DNA from: Escherichia coli
GTDB lineage: Bacteria; Pseudomonadota; Gammaproteobacteria; Enterobacterales; Enterobacteriaceae
Assembly: GCF_044324785.1 (NCBI RefSeq)
Contig: NZ_CP172127.1
Reading direction: 5' to 3' (one strand)
DNA length: 64,000 nucleotides
Made by a program: the position numbers and the translations under genes. The notes under the pieces are model-generated. The model was not told where the DNA came from. It was given only the letters and a program-made list of their open reading frames with translations, and did no database searches. Below, piece after piece: positions 4,900-25,400 of this stretch (the first letter of the stretch is position 1; every line of letters starts with the position of its first letter).

Positions 4900-6357
4900 G
4901 TGTCTGAACTGTCTCAATTATCTCCACAGCCGCTGTGGGATATTTTTGCCAAAATCTGTTCTATTCCTCACCCGTCCTATCATGAAGAGCAACTCGCTGA
5001 ATACATTGTTGGTTGGGCAAAAGAGAAAGGTTTCCATGTCGAACGCGATCAGGTAGGTAATATCCTGATTCGTAAACCTGCTACCGCAGGTATGGAAAAT
5101 CGTAAACCGGTCGTCTTACAGGCCCACCTCGATATGGTGCCGCAGAAAAATAACGACACCGTGCATGACTTCACGAAAGATCCTATCCAGCCTTATATTG
5201 ATGGTGAATGGGTTAAAGCGCGCGGCACCACGCTGGGTGCGGATAACGGCATTGGTATGGCCTCTGCACTGGCGGTTCTGGCTGACGAAAACGTGGTTCA
5301 CGGCCCGCTGGAAGTGCTGCTGACCATGACCGAAGAAGCCGGTATGGACGGTGCGTTCGGCTTACAGAGCAACTGGTTGCAGGCTGATATTCTGATTAAC
5401 ACCGACTCCGAAGAAGAAGGTGAAATCTACATGGGTTGCGCGGGGGGTATCGACTTCACCTCCAACCTGCATTTAGATCGTGAAGCAGTTCCAGCTGGTT
5501 TTGAAACCTTCAAGTTAACCTTAAAAGGTCTGAAAGGCGGTCACTCCGGCGGTGAAATCCACGTTGGCCTGGGTAATGCCAACAAACTGCTGGTGCGCTT
5601 CCTGGCGGGTCATGCGGAAGAGCTGGACCTGCGCCTTATCGATTTCAACGGTGGCACACTGCGTAACGCCATCCCGCGTGAAGCCTTTGCGACGATTGCT
5701 GTCGCAGCTGATAAAGTCGACGCACTGAAATCTCTGGTGAATACCTATCAGGAGATCCTGAAAAACGAGCTGGCAGAGAAAGAGAAAAATCTGGCCTTGT
5801 TGCTGGACTCTGTTGCGAACGATAAAGCGGCCCTGATTGCGAAATCTCGCGATACCTTTATTCGTCTGCTGAACGCCACCCCGAACGGTGTGATCCGCAA
5901 CTCCGACGTGGCAAAAGGTGTGGTCGAAACCTCCCTGAACGTCGGTGTGGTGACCATGACTGACAATAACGTAGAAATTCACTGCCTGATCCGTTCTTTG
6001 ATCGACAGCGGTAAAGACTACGTGGTGAGCATGCTGGATTCGCTGGGTAATCTGGCTGGCGCGAAAACCGAAGCGAAAGGCGCATATCCTGGCTGGCAGC
6101 CGGACGCTAATTCTCCGGTGATGCATCTGGTACGTGAAACTTATCAGCGCCTGTTCAACAAGACGCCGAACATCCAGATTATCCACGCGGGCCTGGAATG
6201 TGGTCTGTTCAAAAAACCGTATCCGGAAATGGACATGGTTTCTATCGGGCCAACAATCACCGGTCCACACTCTCCGGATGAGCAAGTTCACATCGAAAGC
6301 GTTGGCCATTACTGGACACTGCTGACTGAACTGCTGAAAGAAATTCCGGCGAAGTAA
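4900..6357 (+). CDS. pepD: Cytosol non-specific dipeptidase PepD (M20 family)
   Basis: 485-aa ORF with GTG start, MSELSQLSPQPLWDIFAKICSIPHPSYHEEQLAEYIVGWAKEKG..., matching PepD. Confidence 0.93.
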   Translation: MSELSQLSPQPLWDIFAKICSIPHPSYHEEQLAEYIVGWAKEKGFHVERDQVGNILIRKPATAGMENRKPVVLQAHLDMVPQKNNDTVHDFTKDPIQPYIDGEWVKARGTTLGADNGIGMASALAVLADENVVHGPLEVLLTMTEEAGMDGAFGLQSNWLQADILINTDSEEEGEIYMGCAGGIDFTSNLHLDREAVPAGFETFKLTLKGLKGGHSGGEIHVGLGNANKLLVRFLAGHAEELDLRLIDFNGGTLRNAIPREAFATIAVAADKVDALKSLVNTYQEILKNELAEKEKNLALLLDSVANDKAALIAKSRDTFIRLLNATPNGVIRNSDVAKGVVETSLNVGVVTMTDNNVEIHCLIRSLIDSGKDYVVSMLDSLGNLAGAKTEAKGAYPGWQPDANSPVMHLVRETYQRLFNKTPNIQIIHAGLECGLFKKPYPEMDMVSIGPTITGPHSPDEQVHIESVGHYWTLLTELLKEIPAK

Positions 6358-6413
6358 TTATTTGATTTGCTGCCGGATGGCGTTTAATCGTCTTCCGGCA
6401 GTTTCATCCTTCA

Positions 6414-7028
6414 TTATCCTTCGATAAAAGCCATCCCGGTAAATATCCGTCGCGGGTTGCCACGTTCAATTTGATGATGGAACATTCGCCGCTGCGATTT
6501 CAGCGCCGCGCTATTTTCCTGTTGCTGTTGCTCCAGCTTCCAGGCAATCAGCAATCGCGCCAGCCGTTTGTTGGCATGTTGGCTGCGCTCTGACTGAACC
6601 TTCACGCTAATCCCGGATGCCAGATGCGTGGCGCGCACCGCCGAGTCGGTTTTATTGACATGTTGACCGCCCGGCCCCGACGAACGCAGCGTCTCATAAC
6701 GGATTGCATCCGATTGTTCCTGCTCATCAGCAGTAAAACGCCCAATGCCCAGAAACCAGTTTTTGCGCCCATGATGAGGCCGATACGGACTCGGACAAAT
6801 CCACTGGATAGTGCCGCACCAACTTTCGCTTAATGCCCATGCGTTATCGCCATCCAGAGAAATCAGCGCTGAACGCAACGTGTCAGAGTAGCGGCCCGTT
6901 TCTGTTTCCAGCACCGTTATCGCGACGTCTTGTCGGGTAGCTTCTTTAATCAACCTGTCCAGCGCCTTTTTCACTGCGAGGCAACATTCTTCCGGCCCCT
7001 GAGCTGAGGAGAGTTGTAGCAAGATCAT
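6414..7028 (-). CDS. prfH: Peptide chain release factor homolog PrfH (RF-H), apparently full length
   Basis: ORF 6414..7112; the Met at 7028 gives about 204 aa, [26 protein letters not shown]..., with GGQ motif ([16 protein letters not shown]). The start overlaps the stop of the upstream RtcB-family gene (ATGA). Confidence 0.8.
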
Positions 7029-8164
7029 CCTTTTTTCCCTCCACTGTTTTTGAGCGTTAGCACCGGACGCAGCCGCGCGACAGGAATAATTAAACCGGCC
7101 TGCACCAGACATTGCACCACGCTTTCAGCCGATTTATAGGCTTGTGGCGCTTCTTCAAAGATGAGTTGTTTATCGCGACAAATTACCCGACTGCCAAGTT
7201 CAGTACGCGAGAGTTGCGTCGCCGTGTATTTCGCTGCCAGACGCCCTTTACACTCGGTGCGCCCCCATTTACGCCCTGCCCCATGCGCCAGCGAGTGGAG
7301 TGTTTTTTCGTTCGCAACAGGTTTAACCAGCCAGGAGTAATCGCCGCGTGAACCGGGAATAATCACCAGACCGTTGTCATCCGGCGTGGCACCTTTACGA
7401 TGCAACCAGCCCTGTTGATCGCCGATTTGACAGGCGCTAACAAAGTTATGCGCCACATCCAGAACAGGACTTCCGGTGGCCTTAACTTGTTGCATTATGC
7501 GCAAAGCGATCATCTGGCGATTAATACGCGCAAACGCCAGCGCATCGTCATGTTCCGCAATATACCGTAGCGCGTCGTCACTGCCTTGAGGCAAACCATG
7601 ATGCGAAAACGAGGCAATATGCCGCTGTAAAATAGACTGCCCCACCCCCCTCGAGCCGCTATGAACCAGCAGTTGCAGATGTTGTGCATCCAGACCTGCC
7701 AGTGCAAACAGTTCAGCGTCGATGATTTGATCTACTTGTTGCAGTTCTGCGAAGTGGTTTCCGCCACCGATAGAGCCAAGCGAGCTGCGCCACGGATGCT
7801 GTGCAAATGCTGATGGCAGGTTTTCCTCCAGCCAGCTTTCTTCAGCAACGTCATCCAAAGCTGATAATCGCTTTTCAAACTTATCGGCGTTGTATTTGCG
7901 AGCGAGAATATCTGTTTGCCATAGCGCCATGCCGCAGCCGATATCATTGCCGACCAGTGCCGGGTAAAAGCGGCCTGCGGAGAAGAACGCTGCGCCAATC
8001 GGGTAGCCGCGTCCGGGATGTAAATCTGGCATCCCTACTACGCGCTGCATGTTGGGTAAATTTGCCGTGGTGTGTAATTGTTGGATCGCTAAACTCTCGA
8101 TCCACAGGTCATCAGATGCGATGGTAAATACCGCATCGGATAAGGGACGAATATATTTGCCCAT
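7025..8164 (-). CDS. rtcB: RtcB-family RNA ligase (RtcB2-type, partner of PrfH), intact
   Basis: 379-aa uninterrupted [34 protein letters not shown]... with RtcB-like metal/GTP-binding regions ([25 protein letters not shown]). The equivalent K-12 locus (ykfJ) is a fragment. Confidence 0.8.
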
Positions 8165-8174
8165 GTATCATTCC

Positions 8175-8320
8175 ATTTATACTCGTCATACTTCAAGTTG
8201 CATGTACTGCGACTGCGTTCGTTCACCCCAGTCACTTACTTTAGTAAGCTCCTGGGGATTCACTCGCTTGTCGCCTTCCTGCAACTCGAATTATTTAGAG
8301 TATATAAATATAAAAATCAG
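8175..8320. repeat. ERIC (enterobacterial repetitive intergenic consensus / IRU) element
   Basis: Core ccccagtcacttactttagtaagctcctggggattcac is the reverse complement of the ERIC core GTGAATCCCCAGGAGCTTAC..AAGTAAGTGACTGGGG; imperfect palindromic arms on both sides. Confidence 0.7.
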
Positions 8321-8481
8321 GAAATGGCAGACGAATCCAGGGCAAGAAAAAAAGAATTAATCCTGGAAAGGTCTGCAAAGAGTCATTGATAAAGGATTTG
8401 TCATGATTTACCTCCTTGCAGTTTGTGGAATAAGAAAACGCACACATACTAGGCGGGCGTTATTTTCATTGCAAGCTGGAT

Positions 8482-8934
8482 TTAATGTTGCGGTTTATAT
8501 CGCATATAAAAATTAGTAAACCACGCTCCCCGGCATTCAACGCACTGCTGCTTAACTGTCTGAAAACCATAACGTTCAAAAAAGGGCTTTGCGGTTATGC
8601 TGGCGTCCACCGTAAGTTCGGATTCAGACTTAATCAAAGGTTTTAACAAAGCGCTGGCAACCCCACGTCGGGTGTATTCCGGTTCAACAAATAACATATC
8701 GATATAATGTCCAACGCGGGTAATAAAACCAACCGGTTGTGCATTAATGACTGCAACCCGCACTTGTGATTTCGCGAGTTTATCTTTCCAGCGAGATTCG
8801 TCAATCTGCGTCCAGGCGGCAATTTGTTGTGGTGAATAATGCTGACTGGCTGTCATCGTAACCGCTCTAATGAAAATAGCGCATAGTTGCTGAAAATCGC
8901 CAGGCTGATAGTTTCTTATTTGTATGTTATTCAT
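8482..8934 (-). CDS. yafP: GNAT-family N-acetyltransferase YafP
   Basis: ORF 8482..8994; the internal Met at 8934 gives 150 aa, MNNIQIRNYQPGDFQQLCAIFIRAV..., matching YafP. Confidence 0.85.
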   Translation of the reverse strand: MNNIQIRNYQPGDFQQLCAIFIRAVTMTASQHYSPQQIAAWTQIDESRWKDKLAKSQVRVAVINAQPVGFITRVGHYIDMLFVEPEYTRRGVASALLKPLIKSESELTVDASITAKPFFERYGFQTVKQQCVECRGAWFTNFYMRYKPQH

Positions 8935-8965
8935 AATGTAAGTTTTGTTTTGAATACCCGCATCC

Positions 8966-9259
8966 TTATTCCTTAAAGTCATTGAAATCATCATCCGTCA
9001 TATCATTAAGATATTTTTCAGCGCGGCGTGTAATTTCCTCTAATCTTGCAGCACTTGGACGGAAGCGCGCCTTTATAGGCTTTTTCTCTTCTTGTTCAGC
9101 AAGCATGTCCATTAACGCTTCGAATGCGCTGGCACTTAAGAGATATCCTGCGGGGCGATTATTAGAAAGAACCGCAACTGGTTGATCAATAAAGTATTTA
9201 GCTGGGTTTTTACGTAACTCAGTGATATTGACCGATTTTTCAGCGAGAATTCGATGCAT
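8966..9259 (-). CDS. yafN: Antitoxin YafN (Phd/YefM family)
   Basis: 97-aa ORF MHRILAEKSVNITELRKNPAKYFIDQPVAVLSNNRPAGYLL...; lies directly downstream of dinB as in the dinB-yafN-yafO-yafP operon. Confidence 0.85.
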   Translation of the reverse strand: MHRILAEKSVNITELRKNPAKYFIDQPVAVLSNNRPAGYLLSASAFEALMDMLAEQEEKKPIKARFRPSAARLEEITRRAEKYLNDMTDDDFNDFKE

Positions 9260-9310: not shown

Positions 9311-10366
9311 TCATAATCCCAGCACCAGTTGTCTTTCCATTTGAGGGTCAAGCAACGTCACATGCAGCCCCACCAGACGCACACCGCGCCCGCCACGGCG
9401 TTCATCCCAGGTTTTACGCGCGGTGGCGATTAAGTCAGCTTTATTCAGCCGCGGCCAGACATGCTCCTGAGTGGTTTGCTGAAAATCGTCGAACTTTAAT
9501 TTCACTCCCTGACGGGCGATCAGTAAATCAGGTTTCACCTTTGCCAAGCGGCGTTCAAGTTCCGGGTACAGCCGCTCGATAATCGCTTCACATTCAGACC
9601 AGTGATGAATATCTTCCGCCATCGTGCGTTCCACGCCGACGGATTTTCGCAACCGTTCGCTGTTAACGTCGCGCTCGTCAATCCCCTGACTACGCTCCCA
9701 CAAAATGCGGCCAAATTTGCCAAAACGTTTGAGCAGAGTCACCAGATCACACTTTTGCACATCACCGCAGGTCCGCAGCCCCATCGCTTCCAGTTTTGCC
9801 GCCGAGACTTTGCCGACGCCGGGAATTTTTGCCAGCGGTAAGGTTTGCAGAAATGCCGGAACTTCTGCCGGAGTAATCACAAACTGACCGTTGGGTTTAT
9901 TCATGTCGGAAGCAATTTTGGCGAGAAACTTTACCGGCGCAACGCCCGCAGATGCCGTCAGTTGCAGCTCGTTGAAGATCGTCTGACGGATTTCCTGGGC
10001 GATGAGGGTCGCGGAGCCGTGGCAATGCACACTATCGGTGACATCGAGATAGGCTTCATCCAGTGATAACGGTTCAATGCGCGAGGTATAGCGCGAGAAA
10101 ATTTCGCGGATATGATTTGAGGCTTCTTTGTAGGCGTCAAAGCGCCCTGGAAGCAGCGTGAGATGTGGGCATAATTTGAGCGCCATCCCTGTCGGCATAG
10201 CGCTACGTACGCCAAATTTACGCGCGGGATAATTGGCGGTGCTGATCACCCCCCGACGTTCGCGGCTGCCGCCAATAGCAATAGGGATATCGCGCAGGGC
10301 AGGATTGTCGCGCATCTCCACCGCTGCGAAAAAGCAGTCCATATCCACATGAATGATTTTACGCAT
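9311..10366 (-). CDS. dinB: DNA polymerase IV (translesion polymerase DinB)
   Basis: 351-aa [49 protein letters not shown]..., Y-family polymerase. Confidence 0.95.
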
Positions 10367-10380
10367 TGCTCACCTCTCAA

Positions 10381-10400
10381 CACTGGTAAAGTATACAGTG
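10381..10400 (-). promoter_or_regulatory. LexA (SOS) box of the dinB promoter
   Basis: cactggtaaagtatacagtg, a CTG-N10-CAG palindrome 15-35 bp upstream of the dinB start codon; the same sequence read on the minus strand is CACTGTATACTTTACCAGTG. Confidence 0.8.
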
Positions 10401-10436
10401 ATTTCAGAGTTTGAGAAATGCGTAAAGATTCAGCAT

Positions 10437-11192
10437 TTAACGCGTTCGCTGCGAAAGCACCTGCTGCTTATCCAGCTTTTGCACCAGCGGTTGCACCACT
10501 TTATCCCCATGCTGACCAAAGTATTGATATAGCGTATCGGACGCACTTTTGGTCAGCACCATAATCTCAATGCGCCGATTGCCCGCGCTTTGCGGATTTT
10601 TGGCATCCAGCAGCATCTGGTCCGCCATTGCGCTTACCTGCATCACTTTATCTTCCGGCATTCCGGCCTCTTCCAGCACCCGACGGGCCGAAAGCGCGCG
10701 ATCGCCCGAAAGGTTCCAGTTGTTATAGATATTGTTTTTGTAGGCCATCGCATCGGTATGCCCGGTAATAATAATTTTGTTATCGAGCGAGTCGAACACT
10801 GGCGCGAGCTCCACCAGCAAAGTTTTAAAGAACGGCATAATCTGCGCGCTGCCGCGTTCGAACATATTGCGATTCTGGTCGTCTTTAATCAGCACGCGTA
10901 ATCCCTGCGGGACAATCTCCATCTCCAGATTCGCTTCCATATGCGCATCACGGGCAATGGTGTTGATACTGGTTGCCAACTCGCCAAGCTCGGTGGCGGA
11001 TTTCTTCTTCAGCAGCGCCGTTTTCTCATTCACATCACGCGCTTTTTTCTCCGTCTCTTCCGGCACCGCCACGGTGGCAGGTTTTGGCGGATGAGACGGG
11101 CTGATTTTATTTAACGGCGATAGCCCACCACCGTTAAAAATCGACTGCCCGTGCAGCGCGGCGATAATGCTTTCACGCTCGGATTTACTGAC
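10437..11192 (-). pseudogene. lafU: lafU remnant: 5'-truncated MotB-like lateral-flagellar (Flag-2) motor gene
   Basis: The C-terminal two-thirds of ORF 10437..11327 matches the MotB/OmpA-like domain (IITGHTDAMAY...NWNLSGDRALSARRVLEEAGMP...NRRIEIMVL). The N-terminal TM region is absent; the upstream part of the ORF is antisense read-through into lfhA. Confidence 0.7.
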
Positions 11193-22011: not shown

Positions 22012-22410
22012 TCAATATCCTAACGCTGGTCTTTTGCCTGTATTAACTGATTTAGCTGGTTTGCTACATATTAATGCCTTCAGATTTTCCCTTTCCTTGT
22101 CTGTGATACTGTCGCAAACCCTACTAGCCCATTCTACTTCACTCTTCTCCAGGCATTCTATTTTCTTATTGCTCATTGTTCTAATGTTTGGTGTTGCATC
22201 TCCATTTAATAACATCCATGTTTCATTTTTCTTCATAAAACATCTTCCATTATGTTCAAAGATATTAGGTGTGAATATATTATCAGAATCCCATGTTACG
22301 ACTTGCTCGAGGGCTATATTATCTTGATAGTCCATGCCAGCATTATAATAATCACAAGATATAATTATCATGGAAATAATTATCACTAATATCTTCCCAA
22401 GCATTTCCAT
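22012..22410 (-). CDS. Candidate Rhs immunity protein (RhsI-like), unknown family
   Basis: 132-aa ORF whose ATG abuts the Rhs stop (TAA-ATG); AT-rich; hydrophobic N-terminus MEMLGKILVIIISMIIISC (possible lipoprotein or signal-anchor). Confidence 0.6.
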   Translation of the reverse strand: MEMLGKILVIIISMIIISCDYYNAGMDYQDNIALEQVVTWDSDNIFTPNIFEHNGRCFMKKNETWMLLNGDATPNIRTMSNKKIECLEKSEVEWASRVCDSITDKERENLKALICSKPAKSVNTGKRPALGY

Positions 22411-25400
22411 TTACTTTACCTCTTGAAATTCAAATGGGAATCCAGTGAAAGGACCTTTAGGCATAATATATCTTTGATATCCATAAAGCTCACCGAGCAC
22501 TTGTAGGCTTATAGGCGCATTTGTATTCATAGAGGGGTTGTTAAACCCGCACGCCTCAAAAATCATGTTCGTTCGGCTAAAACAATTATTTAAAACAGGA
22601 AGAGGCCCGAGGTTAATAGTTTTTAGTTTTTTATTAAGGTCTATTGCCTTATTCATCATACATTGTTCTTCTTCATCTGTTGTATCTATTATCCAAATCC
22701 AGGTATCTCTGCGGGGTTGCATCTTTTTAAAATAATCAGAGACAGAGGCTCCCATCTCATCCCCAGTTCCCGAACTCATTAATCCATATCGATTTGCCGC
22801 CGCAGCATGCCCAAAAGGATTATCAGGAACGGGGCCGTTACCTATTATCATAGTACTAAGCCCTAATGGATCAACGTGTTGCACTGGATTCAGCGGATAT
22901 TGGTACAGATTCCATCCCCCCTTCAGCCCAATCGGGTCCTGGATGATATACCGCCCCTGCAACGGATCGTAGTACCGGTGACGGTTATAATACAGCCCCG
23001 ACTCCTCATCGTGTTGCTGCCCTGGCAGACGGTACGGCTGGTGCAGGTGATGCGGTTTTTCCTCATTCAGCAGGTTTCCCCACTCATCATACTCCCCGCT
23101 CCACGCCGTATTGCCGTCTTCGCTGATGAGCGCCAGCGGCAGGCCCCGGTGGTCGCAGTGGTAAAGATGAACTTTTCGCGCCGGTGTGTATTCCGGCTCC
23201 ACCTGTCTGGCCAGTTGCTCTACCGTCAGCCCGCACTGCGCAAGCCACGCCCGGCTTTCACTGCTCACGCGGTCTGCCCGGATTTCCCCCTCCAGCCTGT
23301 CCAGCATCCTCACAAGTTCTGCCGGGAACACCACACCGTGTCCGTTCTCGCTCCCTTCCTGCTGGAGCTTCTCCGCCAGGCTCCGCCGCTGCGTTTTCTC
23401 CCGCTCGCCGTTGTCTGTTTCGATGCGGATGAGTGGTGTGAAGCTTCCCGGCTCGTATACCGTCTGGATACGTGTGCTGTCGGTCTGCACCGTCGTCAGG
23501 TGGTCGCCGTCCCAGCCGTACCACGTCACCTCCGGTTTACGCGACAGCGACATCCACCCCGTCAGGTCACGTACCCGCCGCCACACCCGTTTACCCGTCC
23601 GGCGGCCCAGCGGGTCGTAGAGGTAGCGGCTCTCCACCTGCGGCTCGCCATGCTGTATCCGCGTGTAGAACACCAGGCGGTGCTGGCTGTCGTAGTGGTA
23701 GTGGTGGGTCCGCTCGTCGTCCGTCCGTATCACACCCGCCGGGATGCGGTCCGTCTTCTCCGTCAGCCTGCCGTATTCATCGTGGCGGTAGACATAGTGC
23801 GCATCCTCCGCGATGCGGTTATCCGGCCACACTGTGAGTGTACTGTCCGGGTGCAGCTCCGGGTCCGGCAGCCGGTTGCCCGCCGGGTCCGTGGCATACG
23901 GGATGCGGATGTCCAGGTCCGGTGCGAGGGTGCGCACACTCTCCAGCCTGCCCGTGGCGCTGTAGCCGTATTCCCGCGTCTGTCGCGGGCCGCTGATGCG
24001 CACCAGGTCGCCGTTGTCATTCCACCCGTAGTCACGGTCATACACCAGGCTGTTCAGGTGCTGGCTCTGTAACTGGCCTGCGGGGGTGTATGTGCTGGTC
24101 AGTTCGTATGCGGCATTACTGCCTGCCATGCTGCCGAAGCTGCGCACCGTCTCCCGGTGCAGCCTGTCCCGCGTATACTCGACCCGCGGCGTCCCGCCCA
24201 GCTTCATGCCCGCCAGGTAACCGCTGCCATACGTCAGCCACTCCACCGGCGGCAGGCTGTCCGGCGTGATGCGGTTTGCCAGCCCCTGCTCGTTGTATGC
24301 GTGTTTCGTCTCATGCTGCCACAGCAGTTCCCCCGTCTCCGGGTTCTCCACCGTCTGGCGTTCGCCGGTCAGGCGGCCTTTATCGTCATAGCCGTAGTGG
24401 ACCGCCACACGGTGGCCTTCACTGATATGGCTGAGGGTGGTTAACCACCCGTGCTCATCATACTGCCACTGCTCTGCCGGGTCGCCGTTCACCGTCCGGT
24501 GCGTGATGCGGTCTGCTTCATCGTAGTACCAGAGGATGACAAGCCCCTCATCTTCACTCTGCGTGAGTTTTCCGGTCAGGTCATAATGATAACGTTGCGT
24601 CCGCCCGTCAAAGCCGCGCTGCTGTACCAGGCGGTCCAGCGCATCGTAGCTGAAGTCGCTGTGACTGCCGTTCTCGTTGGTCAGGCTGATGACACGTCCG
24701 GCAGCATCGTACTCCATACTGCGCGTCAGCCCGCCCTGCGTGGTGCTGACCGCCTTTCCCCACGCATCGTACTGTGTCTCGCTCCGGTTGCCGTCCGGGG
24801 TGATAACGGCAGTCAGGTCGCCTGCGGCGTTGTACTCATACTGCGTTTCACGGCCCTGTGCGTCTTTCACCGAGGTTAACCGGCCACGGTTGTCATAGCG
24901 GCGGTAACGGCTGATACCTTCCTCACGGTGGACCGCCGTCATCTGACCAAAGCGGTCGTATTCATAACGGGTCTGGTAGCCCGAGCAGTCGGTGAACGCC
25001 AGCAACTGCCCGTAGCGGCTCCAGGTCATCTGCCGGGTGCTGCCCGTCGCATCCGTTGTCGTCGCCGGTAATTCACTGTGCGGATTATCATAAGCATACC
25101 GGATGACGTCCCCACTGCGCGATGTCTCCGTTACCAGCCTGCCCGGTTCATCATATGCCCGGCGGCTCTCCAGCCCGTCCGGGGACACCACTGCCGTCAC
25201 CTGGTTCCCGTCGTTATAGTAAAATTTCGTCTCCCGCCCGTCCGGTGTGGTGATGTCCGTGATATCGCCTGACACCACATTCAGACCGTACTCTGTCCGC
25301 CGTCCCGCCGCGTCCGTCTGCGCCGTAAGCCTTCCTGCCGCGTCATACCCGCTGCGCGTGACGCTGCCGTCCGCCAGTTCTTTTTTCACCACCCGTTTCA

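Follow-up and report, generated by a model that had tools for sequence, protein, structure and literature searches.

The genes rtcB2 and prfH, which encode an RNA ligase of the RtcB family and a release-factor homologue, form an overlapping pair on the minus strand of a 64,000-nucleotide (nt) stretch of Escherichia coli DNA (assembly GCF_044324785.1, contig NZ_CP172127.1), referred to below as the window. An initial annotation, made from the sequence of the window, had described a PrfH of ~204 amino acids (aa) with the GGQ motif whose gene overlaps that of a 379-aa RtcB-like protein by the bases ATGA, and the open reading frames (ORFs), the overlap itself and the position of the GGQ bear this out (Table 1). 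Its coordinates for the pair, 6414-8164, were exact and delimit precisely the two coding sequences, but it left their minus-strand location unstated. Annotations of other E. coli show the same ATGA arrangement, and the overlap and the translational coupling of the pair were described earlier (Baranov 2006, PMC1586002). A 232-aa reading of prfH was set aside as a mechanical extension to the first ATG; the 204-aa start agrees with every annotated E. coli prfH.

Table 1. Features of the rtcB2-prfH locus, with coordinates in the window, and leader peptides encoded upstream of rtcB2 or armZ in other organisms.
Feature	Coordinates	Strand	Description
rtcB2	7025..8164	minus	RtcB-family 3'-phosphate/5'-OH RNA ligase, release-factor-linked subfamily, 379 aa (MGKYIRP...GGKKG, stop)
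prfH	6414..7028	minus	release-factor homologue H, 204 aa plus stop (MILLQLSS...AFIEG, stop), without release factor (RF) domain 1; GGQ at residues 120-122
ATGA overlap	7025..7028	minus	4 bp shared by rtcB2 stop TGA and prfH start ATG (plus strand TCAT); translational coupling
Segment lacking in K-12, O157:H7 and many other strains	6940..7966	.	1027 bp, flanked by 9-bp direct repeats
Candidate sigma-70 promoter	8446..8474	minus	-35 TTGCAA (8474-8469), 17-nt spacer, -10 TAGTAT (8451-8446)
Leader Shine-Dalgarno (SD) sequence and ORF	8357..8417	minus	SD AAGGAGGT (8417-8410), 5 nt, 15-codon ORF 8404..8357 encoding MTNPLSMTLCRPFQD, stop
Predicted helix 1	8421-8414 with 8380-8373	minus	CUGCAAGG with CUUUGCAG; GCAAAG beside the SD pairs with CUUUGC
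Predicted helix 2	within 8376-8371 and 8332-8327; within 8367-8361 and 8342-8336	minus	AGAC/GUCU plus CCAGG/CCUGG; 5' arm inside the leader ORF
Predicted helix 3, 5' arm	8327-8320	minus	CCAUUUCC; helix CCAWUUCC/GGAWUGG
Predicted helix 3, 3' arm	8168..8174	minus	GGAAUGA here, GGAAUGG/GGAUUGG elsewhere; 3-4 nt before the rtcB2 AUG
ERIC/IRU-type repeat	8182..8305	minus	124-nt imperfect palindrome in the loop of helix 3, ~17 nt ahead of the rtcB2 start
GC-rich hairpin	6370..6401	.	in the 56 bp that separate the convergent stops of prfH and pepD; -17.9 kcal/mol, z -5.05
dinB	10366..9311	minus	upstream of rtcB2, same strand
yafN	9259..8966	minus	upstream of rtcB2, same strand
yafP	8934..8482	minus	upstream of rtcB2, same strand
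Leader peptide, Salmonella			MTLYSLNALCRPFQD
Leader peptide, Klebsiella (oxytoca group)			MNTDFQNILCRPSQE
Leader peptide, Klebsiella aerogenes			MNKYCLDSLCRPSQE
Leader peptide, Citrobacter			MMTHYKNSICRLSQE
Leader peptide, Enterobacter			MTHHALISLCRPLQA
Leader peptide, Kosakonia			MTQHALISLCRPFQD
Leader peptide, Cronobacter			MTYSTLITLCRLTQE
Leader peptide, Pragia			MQQLEISTLCRRIQG
Leader peptide, Entomomonas			MLVTTILCRSFQG
Leader peptide, Pseudomonas sp.			MQALITLCRSRLA
Leader peptide, Kangiella			MKYTLHLCRSYPV
Leader peptide, P. aeruginosa			MIQFSTLCRLRLA; precedes armZ

Neither gene is a chance ORF, since the scores of both products exceed the NCBIfam cut-offs: RtcB2 reaches 642.7 bits against NF007153 (cut-off 407) and 621.3 bits against TIGR03073 'release_rtcB' (cut-off 271.8), and PrfH 330.4 bits against TIGR03072 'release_prfH' (cut-off 166.65). 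The corresponding Pfam matches are PF01139 (1.5e-59 and 1.4e-12) for RtcB2 and PF00472 for PrfH. RtcB2 also belongs to the release-factor-linked RtcB proteins by position, its gene lying directly upstream of prfH, on the same strand and overlapping it. Residues D74, C77, N136, H137, H168, H239 and H294 of RtcB2 align with D95, C98, N202, H203, H234, H329 and H404 of Pyrococcus horikoshii RtcB, and are thus the aligned counterparts of the metal-binding and guanylylation (GMP-site) residues, the roles of which are taken from the established RtcB literature and from the H294N variant reported in PMC9304027; mutation of H294 inactivates the E. coli enzyme, EcRtcB2 (PMC9304027).

RtcB1, the ligase of the rtcBA-rtcR RNA repair system, shares with RtcB2 the Pfam family and fold (PF01139), the ligation chemistry and identical active-site residues, and on these grounds RtcB2 could be a tRNA or general RNA repair ligase of the same kind, linked to prfH only incidentally. 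RtcB2 is shorter, however (379 aa), matches the separate release-factor-linked equivalog and not generic RtcB, and is linked to prfH and not to rtcA/rtcR; the rtcB2-prfH pairing was invariant in all loci examined. According to Tian 2022 (PMC9304027), RtcB2 of E. coli ATCC 25922 mends damaged 30S subunits and not tRNAs, unlike RtcB1. The chance that RtcB2 of the window is a general repair ligase appears close to nil.

PrfH of the window is 98.5% identical (201/204, full length) to chain 8 of PDB 7SA4, which is the PrfH of E. coli ATCC 25922 on a toxin-damaged 70S ribosome (Tian 2022, PMC9304027). The three differences (R20K, V37I and T195I) are conservative and lie outside the listed contact residues, while the two proteins are identical at R83, H86, R88, R189, G11-P12, K89, N90, R52, S53, R181, H184 and H85. 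All contacts that Tian et al. describe to A1493-3'P, h18/S12, H69 and C1054 are kept, as is Q122 of the GGQ. The protein can be aligned only to residues ~115-300 of RF2, and its match to ArfB is weak (33.7 bits, cut-off 100). With ArfB/ICT1 and with the PrfH-CT subfamily (Capnocytophaga gingivalis PrfH, PDB 9MOR/9MQ4) it has in common a GGQ peptidyl-tRNA hydrolase domain and stop-codon-independent rescue. PrfH-CT proteins, however, have a length of 225-250 aa and a basic C-terminal tail, whereas the window encodes the short type, which at 204 aa ends in ...GMAFIEG like E. coli PrfH (EcPrfH) and is without such a tail; it is therefore expected to act only on damaged ribosomes.

In K-12 the locus is in a different state. 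ykfJ (b0235) and prfH (b0236) of MG1655, located between yafP and pepD, are annotated as pseudogenes, and the initial annotation had described them as decayed and proposed an alignment with K-12. That alignment agrees with the description: K-12 is not equally intact and carries a single lesion, the absence of 1027 bp. The locus is orthologous, and K-12 and the window have in common the candidate promoter, the leader described below, the repeat within it and the first ~69 rtcB2 codons. Direct repeats, TACCCGGCA (7966-7958) and TACCCGACA (6939-6931), flank the deletion, so that its junction is ambiguous within the repeat. It removes residues ~70-379 of RtcB2 and residues 1-30 of PrfH and shifts the reading frame. 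The K-12 lesion has been published (Baranov 2006, PMC1586002; Tian 2022, PMC9304027), the former study describing a conserved, coupled pair and a deletion of ~1000 nt in K-12 and O157:H7 relative to CFT073, 042 and UTI89.

The breakpoints are identical in K-12, O157:H7 and three further strains examined (one of them NZ_CP098217.1), and two of these three (again including NZ_CP098217.1) have lost another 166 bp inside prfH (window 6579-6744). The common breakpoints and the additional 166-bp losses look like one old deletion that spread and was followed by stepwise further decay. IS2 or IS3 transposases are annotated at the locus in two other records. Of 5426 complete E. coli genomes, 2714 contain the segment that K-12 has lost, and the stretch 6300-8500 is covered to at least 80% in 2709 genomes; carrying an intact pair is therefore no rarity but the condition of about half of E. 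coli. One record with the undeleted pair, NZ_CM135829.1 (4.83 Mb), is labelled E. coli 'DH5alpha', which is unexpected for a K-12 derivative, and the label is probably wrong.

The absence of the segment from about half of the complete genomes, the further decay in other strains (the 166-bp deletion and the transposase records) and the changes in the window's own leader, into which a repeat has been inserted and in which a point change has occurred, would also fit genes that are intact by chance, no longer functional and heading for decay of the K-12 type. Both genes are nonetheless free of stops and frameshifts and keep all catalytic residues. In comparisons with four further alleles from E. 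coli, far more codon changes are synonymous than non-synonymous (29:9 for rtcB2 and 26:2 for prfH against the allele of strain APEC O18, for example), and this excess indicates purifying selection on both genes. The identical RtcB2 protein occurs in 464 blocks of a public sequence collection, and the leader with the inserted repeat also accompanies an intact pair in strains PEC408 and N3. Loss of function in progress is accordingly a most improbable account of the locus.

The function of the pair has been shown by experiments of others, carried out on a PrfH 98.5% identical to that of the window and on an RtcB2 of the same E. coli orthologue group. According to Tian 2022 (PMC9304027), PrfH frees peptide only from 70S ribosomes cleaved at A1493/G1494 and not from intact 70S; the same study found that the pair reverses the damage done by E3-like toxins in vivo, with rescue of growth. 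ATCC 25922 is resistant to colicin E3, unlike its double knockout and unlike K-12 BW25113 (Maviza 2022, PMC9223846), and repair of translating ribosomes by RtcB2 is accelerated by PrfH (PMC13166195). Work from 2026 has refined the kinetics and described the dual-function PrfH-CT subfamily. The ATCC 25922 pair comes from the same species and the same slot (yafP/dinB ... pepD), with the same gene lengths and ATGA overlap. It differs from that of the window in lineage (~3-4% nt divergence of the window from B2-type alleles) and in the three PrfH substitutions; unlike the B2-type/ATCC 25922 reference, the window has a repeat in its 5' leader (lacking in the B2 strain APEC O18) and no upstream yafO.

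For the window itself, the evidence consists of intact genes, the retention of every named residue and purifying selection. From these features and the published experiments we conclude, with a probability of roughly 90%, that the window carries a functional rtcB2-prfH operon, with which E. coli undoes the damage that ribotoxins cause in the decoding centre of its ribosomes. The ribosome/rRNA rescue and repair role suggested by the initial annotation is upheld by the in vitro, structural and in vivo results for the near-identical ATCC 25922 proteins (PMC9304027, PMC9223846, PMC13166195). Colicin E3, CdiA-CT(ECL) and related toxins cleave 16S rRNA between A1493 and G1494, and the 70S ribosome stalls; PrfH recognises the cleaved A1493 end and, through its GGQ (Q122), hydrolyses the peptidyl-tRNA, which allows the ribosome to be dismantled; RtcB2 then re-ligates the 16S rRNA by standard RtcB chemistry, with a His294-GMP intermediate and a two-metal site. 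Neither protein matched a family among the anti-phage defence models of PADLOC-DB. The intact pair and its function are already known, and the window provides one more copy of a characterised anti-ribotoxin module.

Upstream of rtcB2, on the same strand, lie dinB, yafN and yafP, with a spacer of 317 bp between yafP and rtcB2. The initial annotation had pointed to this adjacency to an SOS-regulated operon. The adjacency is real and conserved: the order dinB...rtcB2-prfH...pepD is kept in Salmonella, Citrobacter, Enterobacter, Klebsiella, Cronobacter and Kosakonia, and it looks like inherited synteny within the Enterobacteriaceae. The significance for the SOS response that it seemed to imply is unsupported. 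With at most one mismatch to CTGT-N8-ACAG, no LexA box was found in 8165-8481; the nearest matches are one inside a gene at 7696 and the dinB box at 10383-10398, which is the sole LexA-box-like site in the vicinity of the locus. As the only LexA box is that of dinB, there is no sign of SOS control of rtcB2-prfH, and SOS control was rejected.

Read-through from dinB would nevertheless make the pair an SOS-controlled extension of dinB-yafN(O)P with a role in DNA damage, and the shared strand, the short distance, the conserved gene order in six genera besides E. coli and the failure of a simple scan to find a terminator on that strand in the spacer are compatible with this. Apart from the missing LexA box, it is contradicted by a conserved promoter-like pair and a leader with a strong SD between yafP and rtcB2, and by Pragia, Pseudomonas, Entomomonas and Kangiella, in which the operon has different neighbours and the same leader (the dinB linkage being lost in the first three). 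The published function is also unrelated to DNA damage. We consider an SOS-driven role very unlikely.

In the window, yafO, the toxin gene of yafNO, is absent (at ~8939-8941) through a deletion of ~379 bp relative to N3, K-12, PEC408 and APEC O18, leaving the antitoxin gene yafN alone; the same arrangement is seen in public assemblies 100% identical to the window, whereas a scan of GTDB species representatives for exact matches to the junction of this yafO deletion gave no hit. On the other side, some strains with an intact pair (e.g., NZ_OZ392432.1) have two extra genes (~0.9 kb), one for a metal-dependent hydrolase and one for a hypothetical protein, between prfH and pepD. The hairpin at 6370-6401 is probably the transcript end shared by prfH and pepD; it was missed by a simple terminator scan because there is no T run on the prfH side.

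The spacer between yafP and rtcB2 is itself conserved. Its first 172 nt are almost invariant among E. coli lineages with ~3% coding divergence, and they contain a candidate promoter followed by a short leader ORF. The candidate promoter scores 8/12, just under the threshold of the simple scan (9/12), which reported no promoter at that threshold and no terminator in the spacer. In most of 12 other genera, a TTGnnn-17-TAnnAT pair can be made out by eye upstream of the leader SD and equally far from it. From this pattern we infer that the operon would be transcribed from a promoter of its own, located directly after yafP. A 50-aa ORF in the spacer (8447..8295) was dismissed as spurious, as it has no SD and its C-terminus enters the inserted repeat.

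An ORF of 13-15 codons, ending in (L/I)CR, four residues and a stop, lies behind CUGCAAAGGAGG upstream of rtcB2 in 13 genera, and this leader arrangement precedes rtcB2 in every gammaproteobacterial genus fetched, including those without the dinB linkage. The ORF upstream of armZ in P. aeruginosa has Q3 and F4 as reported for PA5471.1 (PMC13041342), and ArmZ has 379 aa and is 60% identical to RtcB2 of the window. From the Q3/F4 match and the presence of armZ downstream, it follows that the E. coli leader ORF is an orthologue of PA5471.1. The gene order PA5471.1-armZ(PA5471)-PA5470(prfH) is the same as in the window, and the P. aeruginosa and E. coli leaders share the SD context, the CUUUGCAG box, a GYCUGCC box further downstream and, ahead of the AUG, GGAUUGG. 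They differ in the distance from leader to gene, which is ~250 nt with extra GC-rich hairpins in Pseudomonas and ~65 nt in E. coli that lack the repeat. The RefSeq note on the RtcB remnant in NZ_CP098217.1 cites 'drug-inducible mexXY expression', a text that belongs to P. aeruginosa armZ and is wrong for E. coli, though it is a clue to orthology.

PA5471.1 is reported to act by transcription attenuation, so that stalling of ribosomes leads to read-through into armZ-PA5470, and it responds to ribosome-targeting drugs and to defects in suhB, cca, fmt and folD (PMC12057347, PMC13041342). Attenuation has been tested experimentally in Pseudomonas only, where ArmZ is also an anti-repressor of MexZ. 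For K-12, a review (PMC3516279, citing Morita 2006) gives ykfJ as induced by 4-azaleucine, an indirect hint in keeping with a leader that senses translation; K-12 has retained the leader. In the searchable literature, which does not cover Morita 2006/2009, where it may be mentioned, we found no description of the leader for E. coli or outside Pseudomonas.

Further loci were scanned by way of a PrfH alignment. The pattern used, G[PA]GGQHVN, also fits RF1 and RF2, and only ~12 of 80 loci were true prfH. Among the Proteobacteria recovered, Kangiella has the same leader type and Delftia the CUUUGCAG box in another reading frame, while Massilia and Methylobacterium have unrelated short ORFs upstream of rtcB2. 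The loci from Bacteroidota encode a longer RtcB, and this phylum was left out of the leader comparison.

The boxes CUGCAAAGGAGG, CUUUGCAGR, GYCUGCC and GGAWUGG are common to the 13 genera, and RNAalifold, applied to an alignment of 11 genera, predicts three leader helices (8320..8421 plus 8168..8174). In these helices 97% of the cells are paired, compared with 24-47% in slid controls, and the 5' arm of helix 3 co-varies across genera with the A/U at the centre of the 3' arm. Helix 3 would cover the only SD-like bases of rtcB2. The synonymous positions of CUU-UGC-AGR are invariant, and Delftia retains the box in a different frame; this conservation at the nucleotide level points to a constraint on the RNA rather than on the peptide. 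A search of Rfam returned no family for the leader. An intrinsic terminator was considered and rejected, as the U run at 8318-8310 sits 9 nt past the conserved hairpin and no abutting stem was found. On the basis of the predicted pairing, a leader RNA structure is plausible, though not proven.

Within helix 3, the window carries the enterobacterial repetitive intergenic consensus (ERIC)/intergenic repeat unit (IRU)-type repeat mentioned above, with a folding energy of -57.9 kcal/mol (z -8.6). Its sole Rfam match is V_AS5, at 46.7 bits and below the gathering score; we take it to be an ERIC element because we recognise the ERIC primer sequences in it. The window, K-12, N3 and PEC408 have the element, APEC O18 and CB7453 do not, and two loci of the K-12 type (one of them NZ_CP098217.1) have an internal deletion of ~64 bp in it. 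A G-to-A change at 8168, specific to this allele, converts GGAAUGG to GGAAUGA and weakens the terminal pair of helix 3. The same change turns the upstream in-frame ATG-GAA-TGG (the annotated start of K-12 ykfJ, MEWYMGK...) into ATG-GAA-TGA.

These data allow a model in which, in E. coli and other Enterobacterales, the repair operon is not linked to the SOS response and is controlled by the 15-codon leader orthologous to PA5471.1. The leader, together with its RNA helices, would detect ribosomes that are stalled or have been cleaved by E3, and this would relieve attenuation or occlusion of the ribosome-binding site and raise expression of the repair genes, with the ERIC element modulating the response. 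We give this regulatory model about even odds.

Several observations weigh against our interpretation of the operon. Covariation in the leader is thin, with only two compensatory pairs and most helix columns invariant, and single-sequence leaders fold no more stably than shuffled ones (z -1.3 and -1.6). The simple scan found no canonical stem-plus-U-tract terminator in the enterobacterial leader, and in the window both the 124-nt ERIC element and the G-to-A change at 8168 fall within the last leader helix. With respect to the enzyme, the nearest PDB relatives of RtcB2 are the RtcB proteins of Thermus thermophilus and P. horikoshii (~1e-31 to 1e-29) and no close structure has been solved, so the evidence for its 30S specificity is the biochemistry published for the enzyme of ATCC 25922.

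The orthology with the Pseudomonas operon also raises the question of what the main role of the genes is. RtcB2 and ArmZ are identical at 228 of 379 positions and equal in length; the leader is orthologous to one that responds to ribosome-targeting drugs and to the suhB, cca, fmt and folD defects; for PA5470, relief of macrolide-induced stalling has been reported; and K-12 ykfJ is reported to be inducible by 4-azaleucine (PMC3516279). The operon could thus serve mainly as a general response to translation stress, i.e. to antibiotic-stalled or impaired ribosomes, as armZ-PA5470 does, with ribotoxin repair as one use. According to PMC9304027, however, EcPrfH releases peptide from damaged 70S only and not from intact 70S, the dual activity of PrfH-CT requires a basic C-terminal tail that the 204-aa protein is without, and the anti-repressor role of ArmZ requires MexZ. 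A general stress response as the principal role is therefore unlikely, although it is compatible with the repair of ribotoxin damage as the best explanation, because it concerns induction more than biochemical activity.

The window appears to come from a divergent E. coli lineage that has rarely been completed. Among complete RefSeq E. coli genomes, queried with positions 1-25000 and 40000-64000, the best match is strain N3 (98.3% and 99.3%, respectively) and all others are at or below 97.7%, while GCA_032695445.1, GCA_037030465.1 and a metagenome-assembled genome from ENA are 100% identical over 7.1 kb. By the N3 annotation, the regions ~10400-25000 and 40000-64000 hold lafU and truncated flhA-like remnants of lateral flagella, an ISAs1 pseudogene, an RHS core pseudogene, a type VI secretion cluster (tssM, tssH, tssA) and an rRNA operon.

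K-12 represents the defective state of this locus, and sensitivity to colicin E3 or CdiA measured in K-12 is thus not transferable to strains like the one studied here. The conserved leader of the PA5471.1 type may be the only element of the locus that is new. If the model holds, it would couple the expression of ribosome repair directly to ribosome stalling, it would join the literature on RtcB2-PrfH and colicin defence in E. coli with that on ArmZ/MexXY and the antibiotic response in Pseudomonas, and the leader would offer a simple reporter for damage to the decoding centre.

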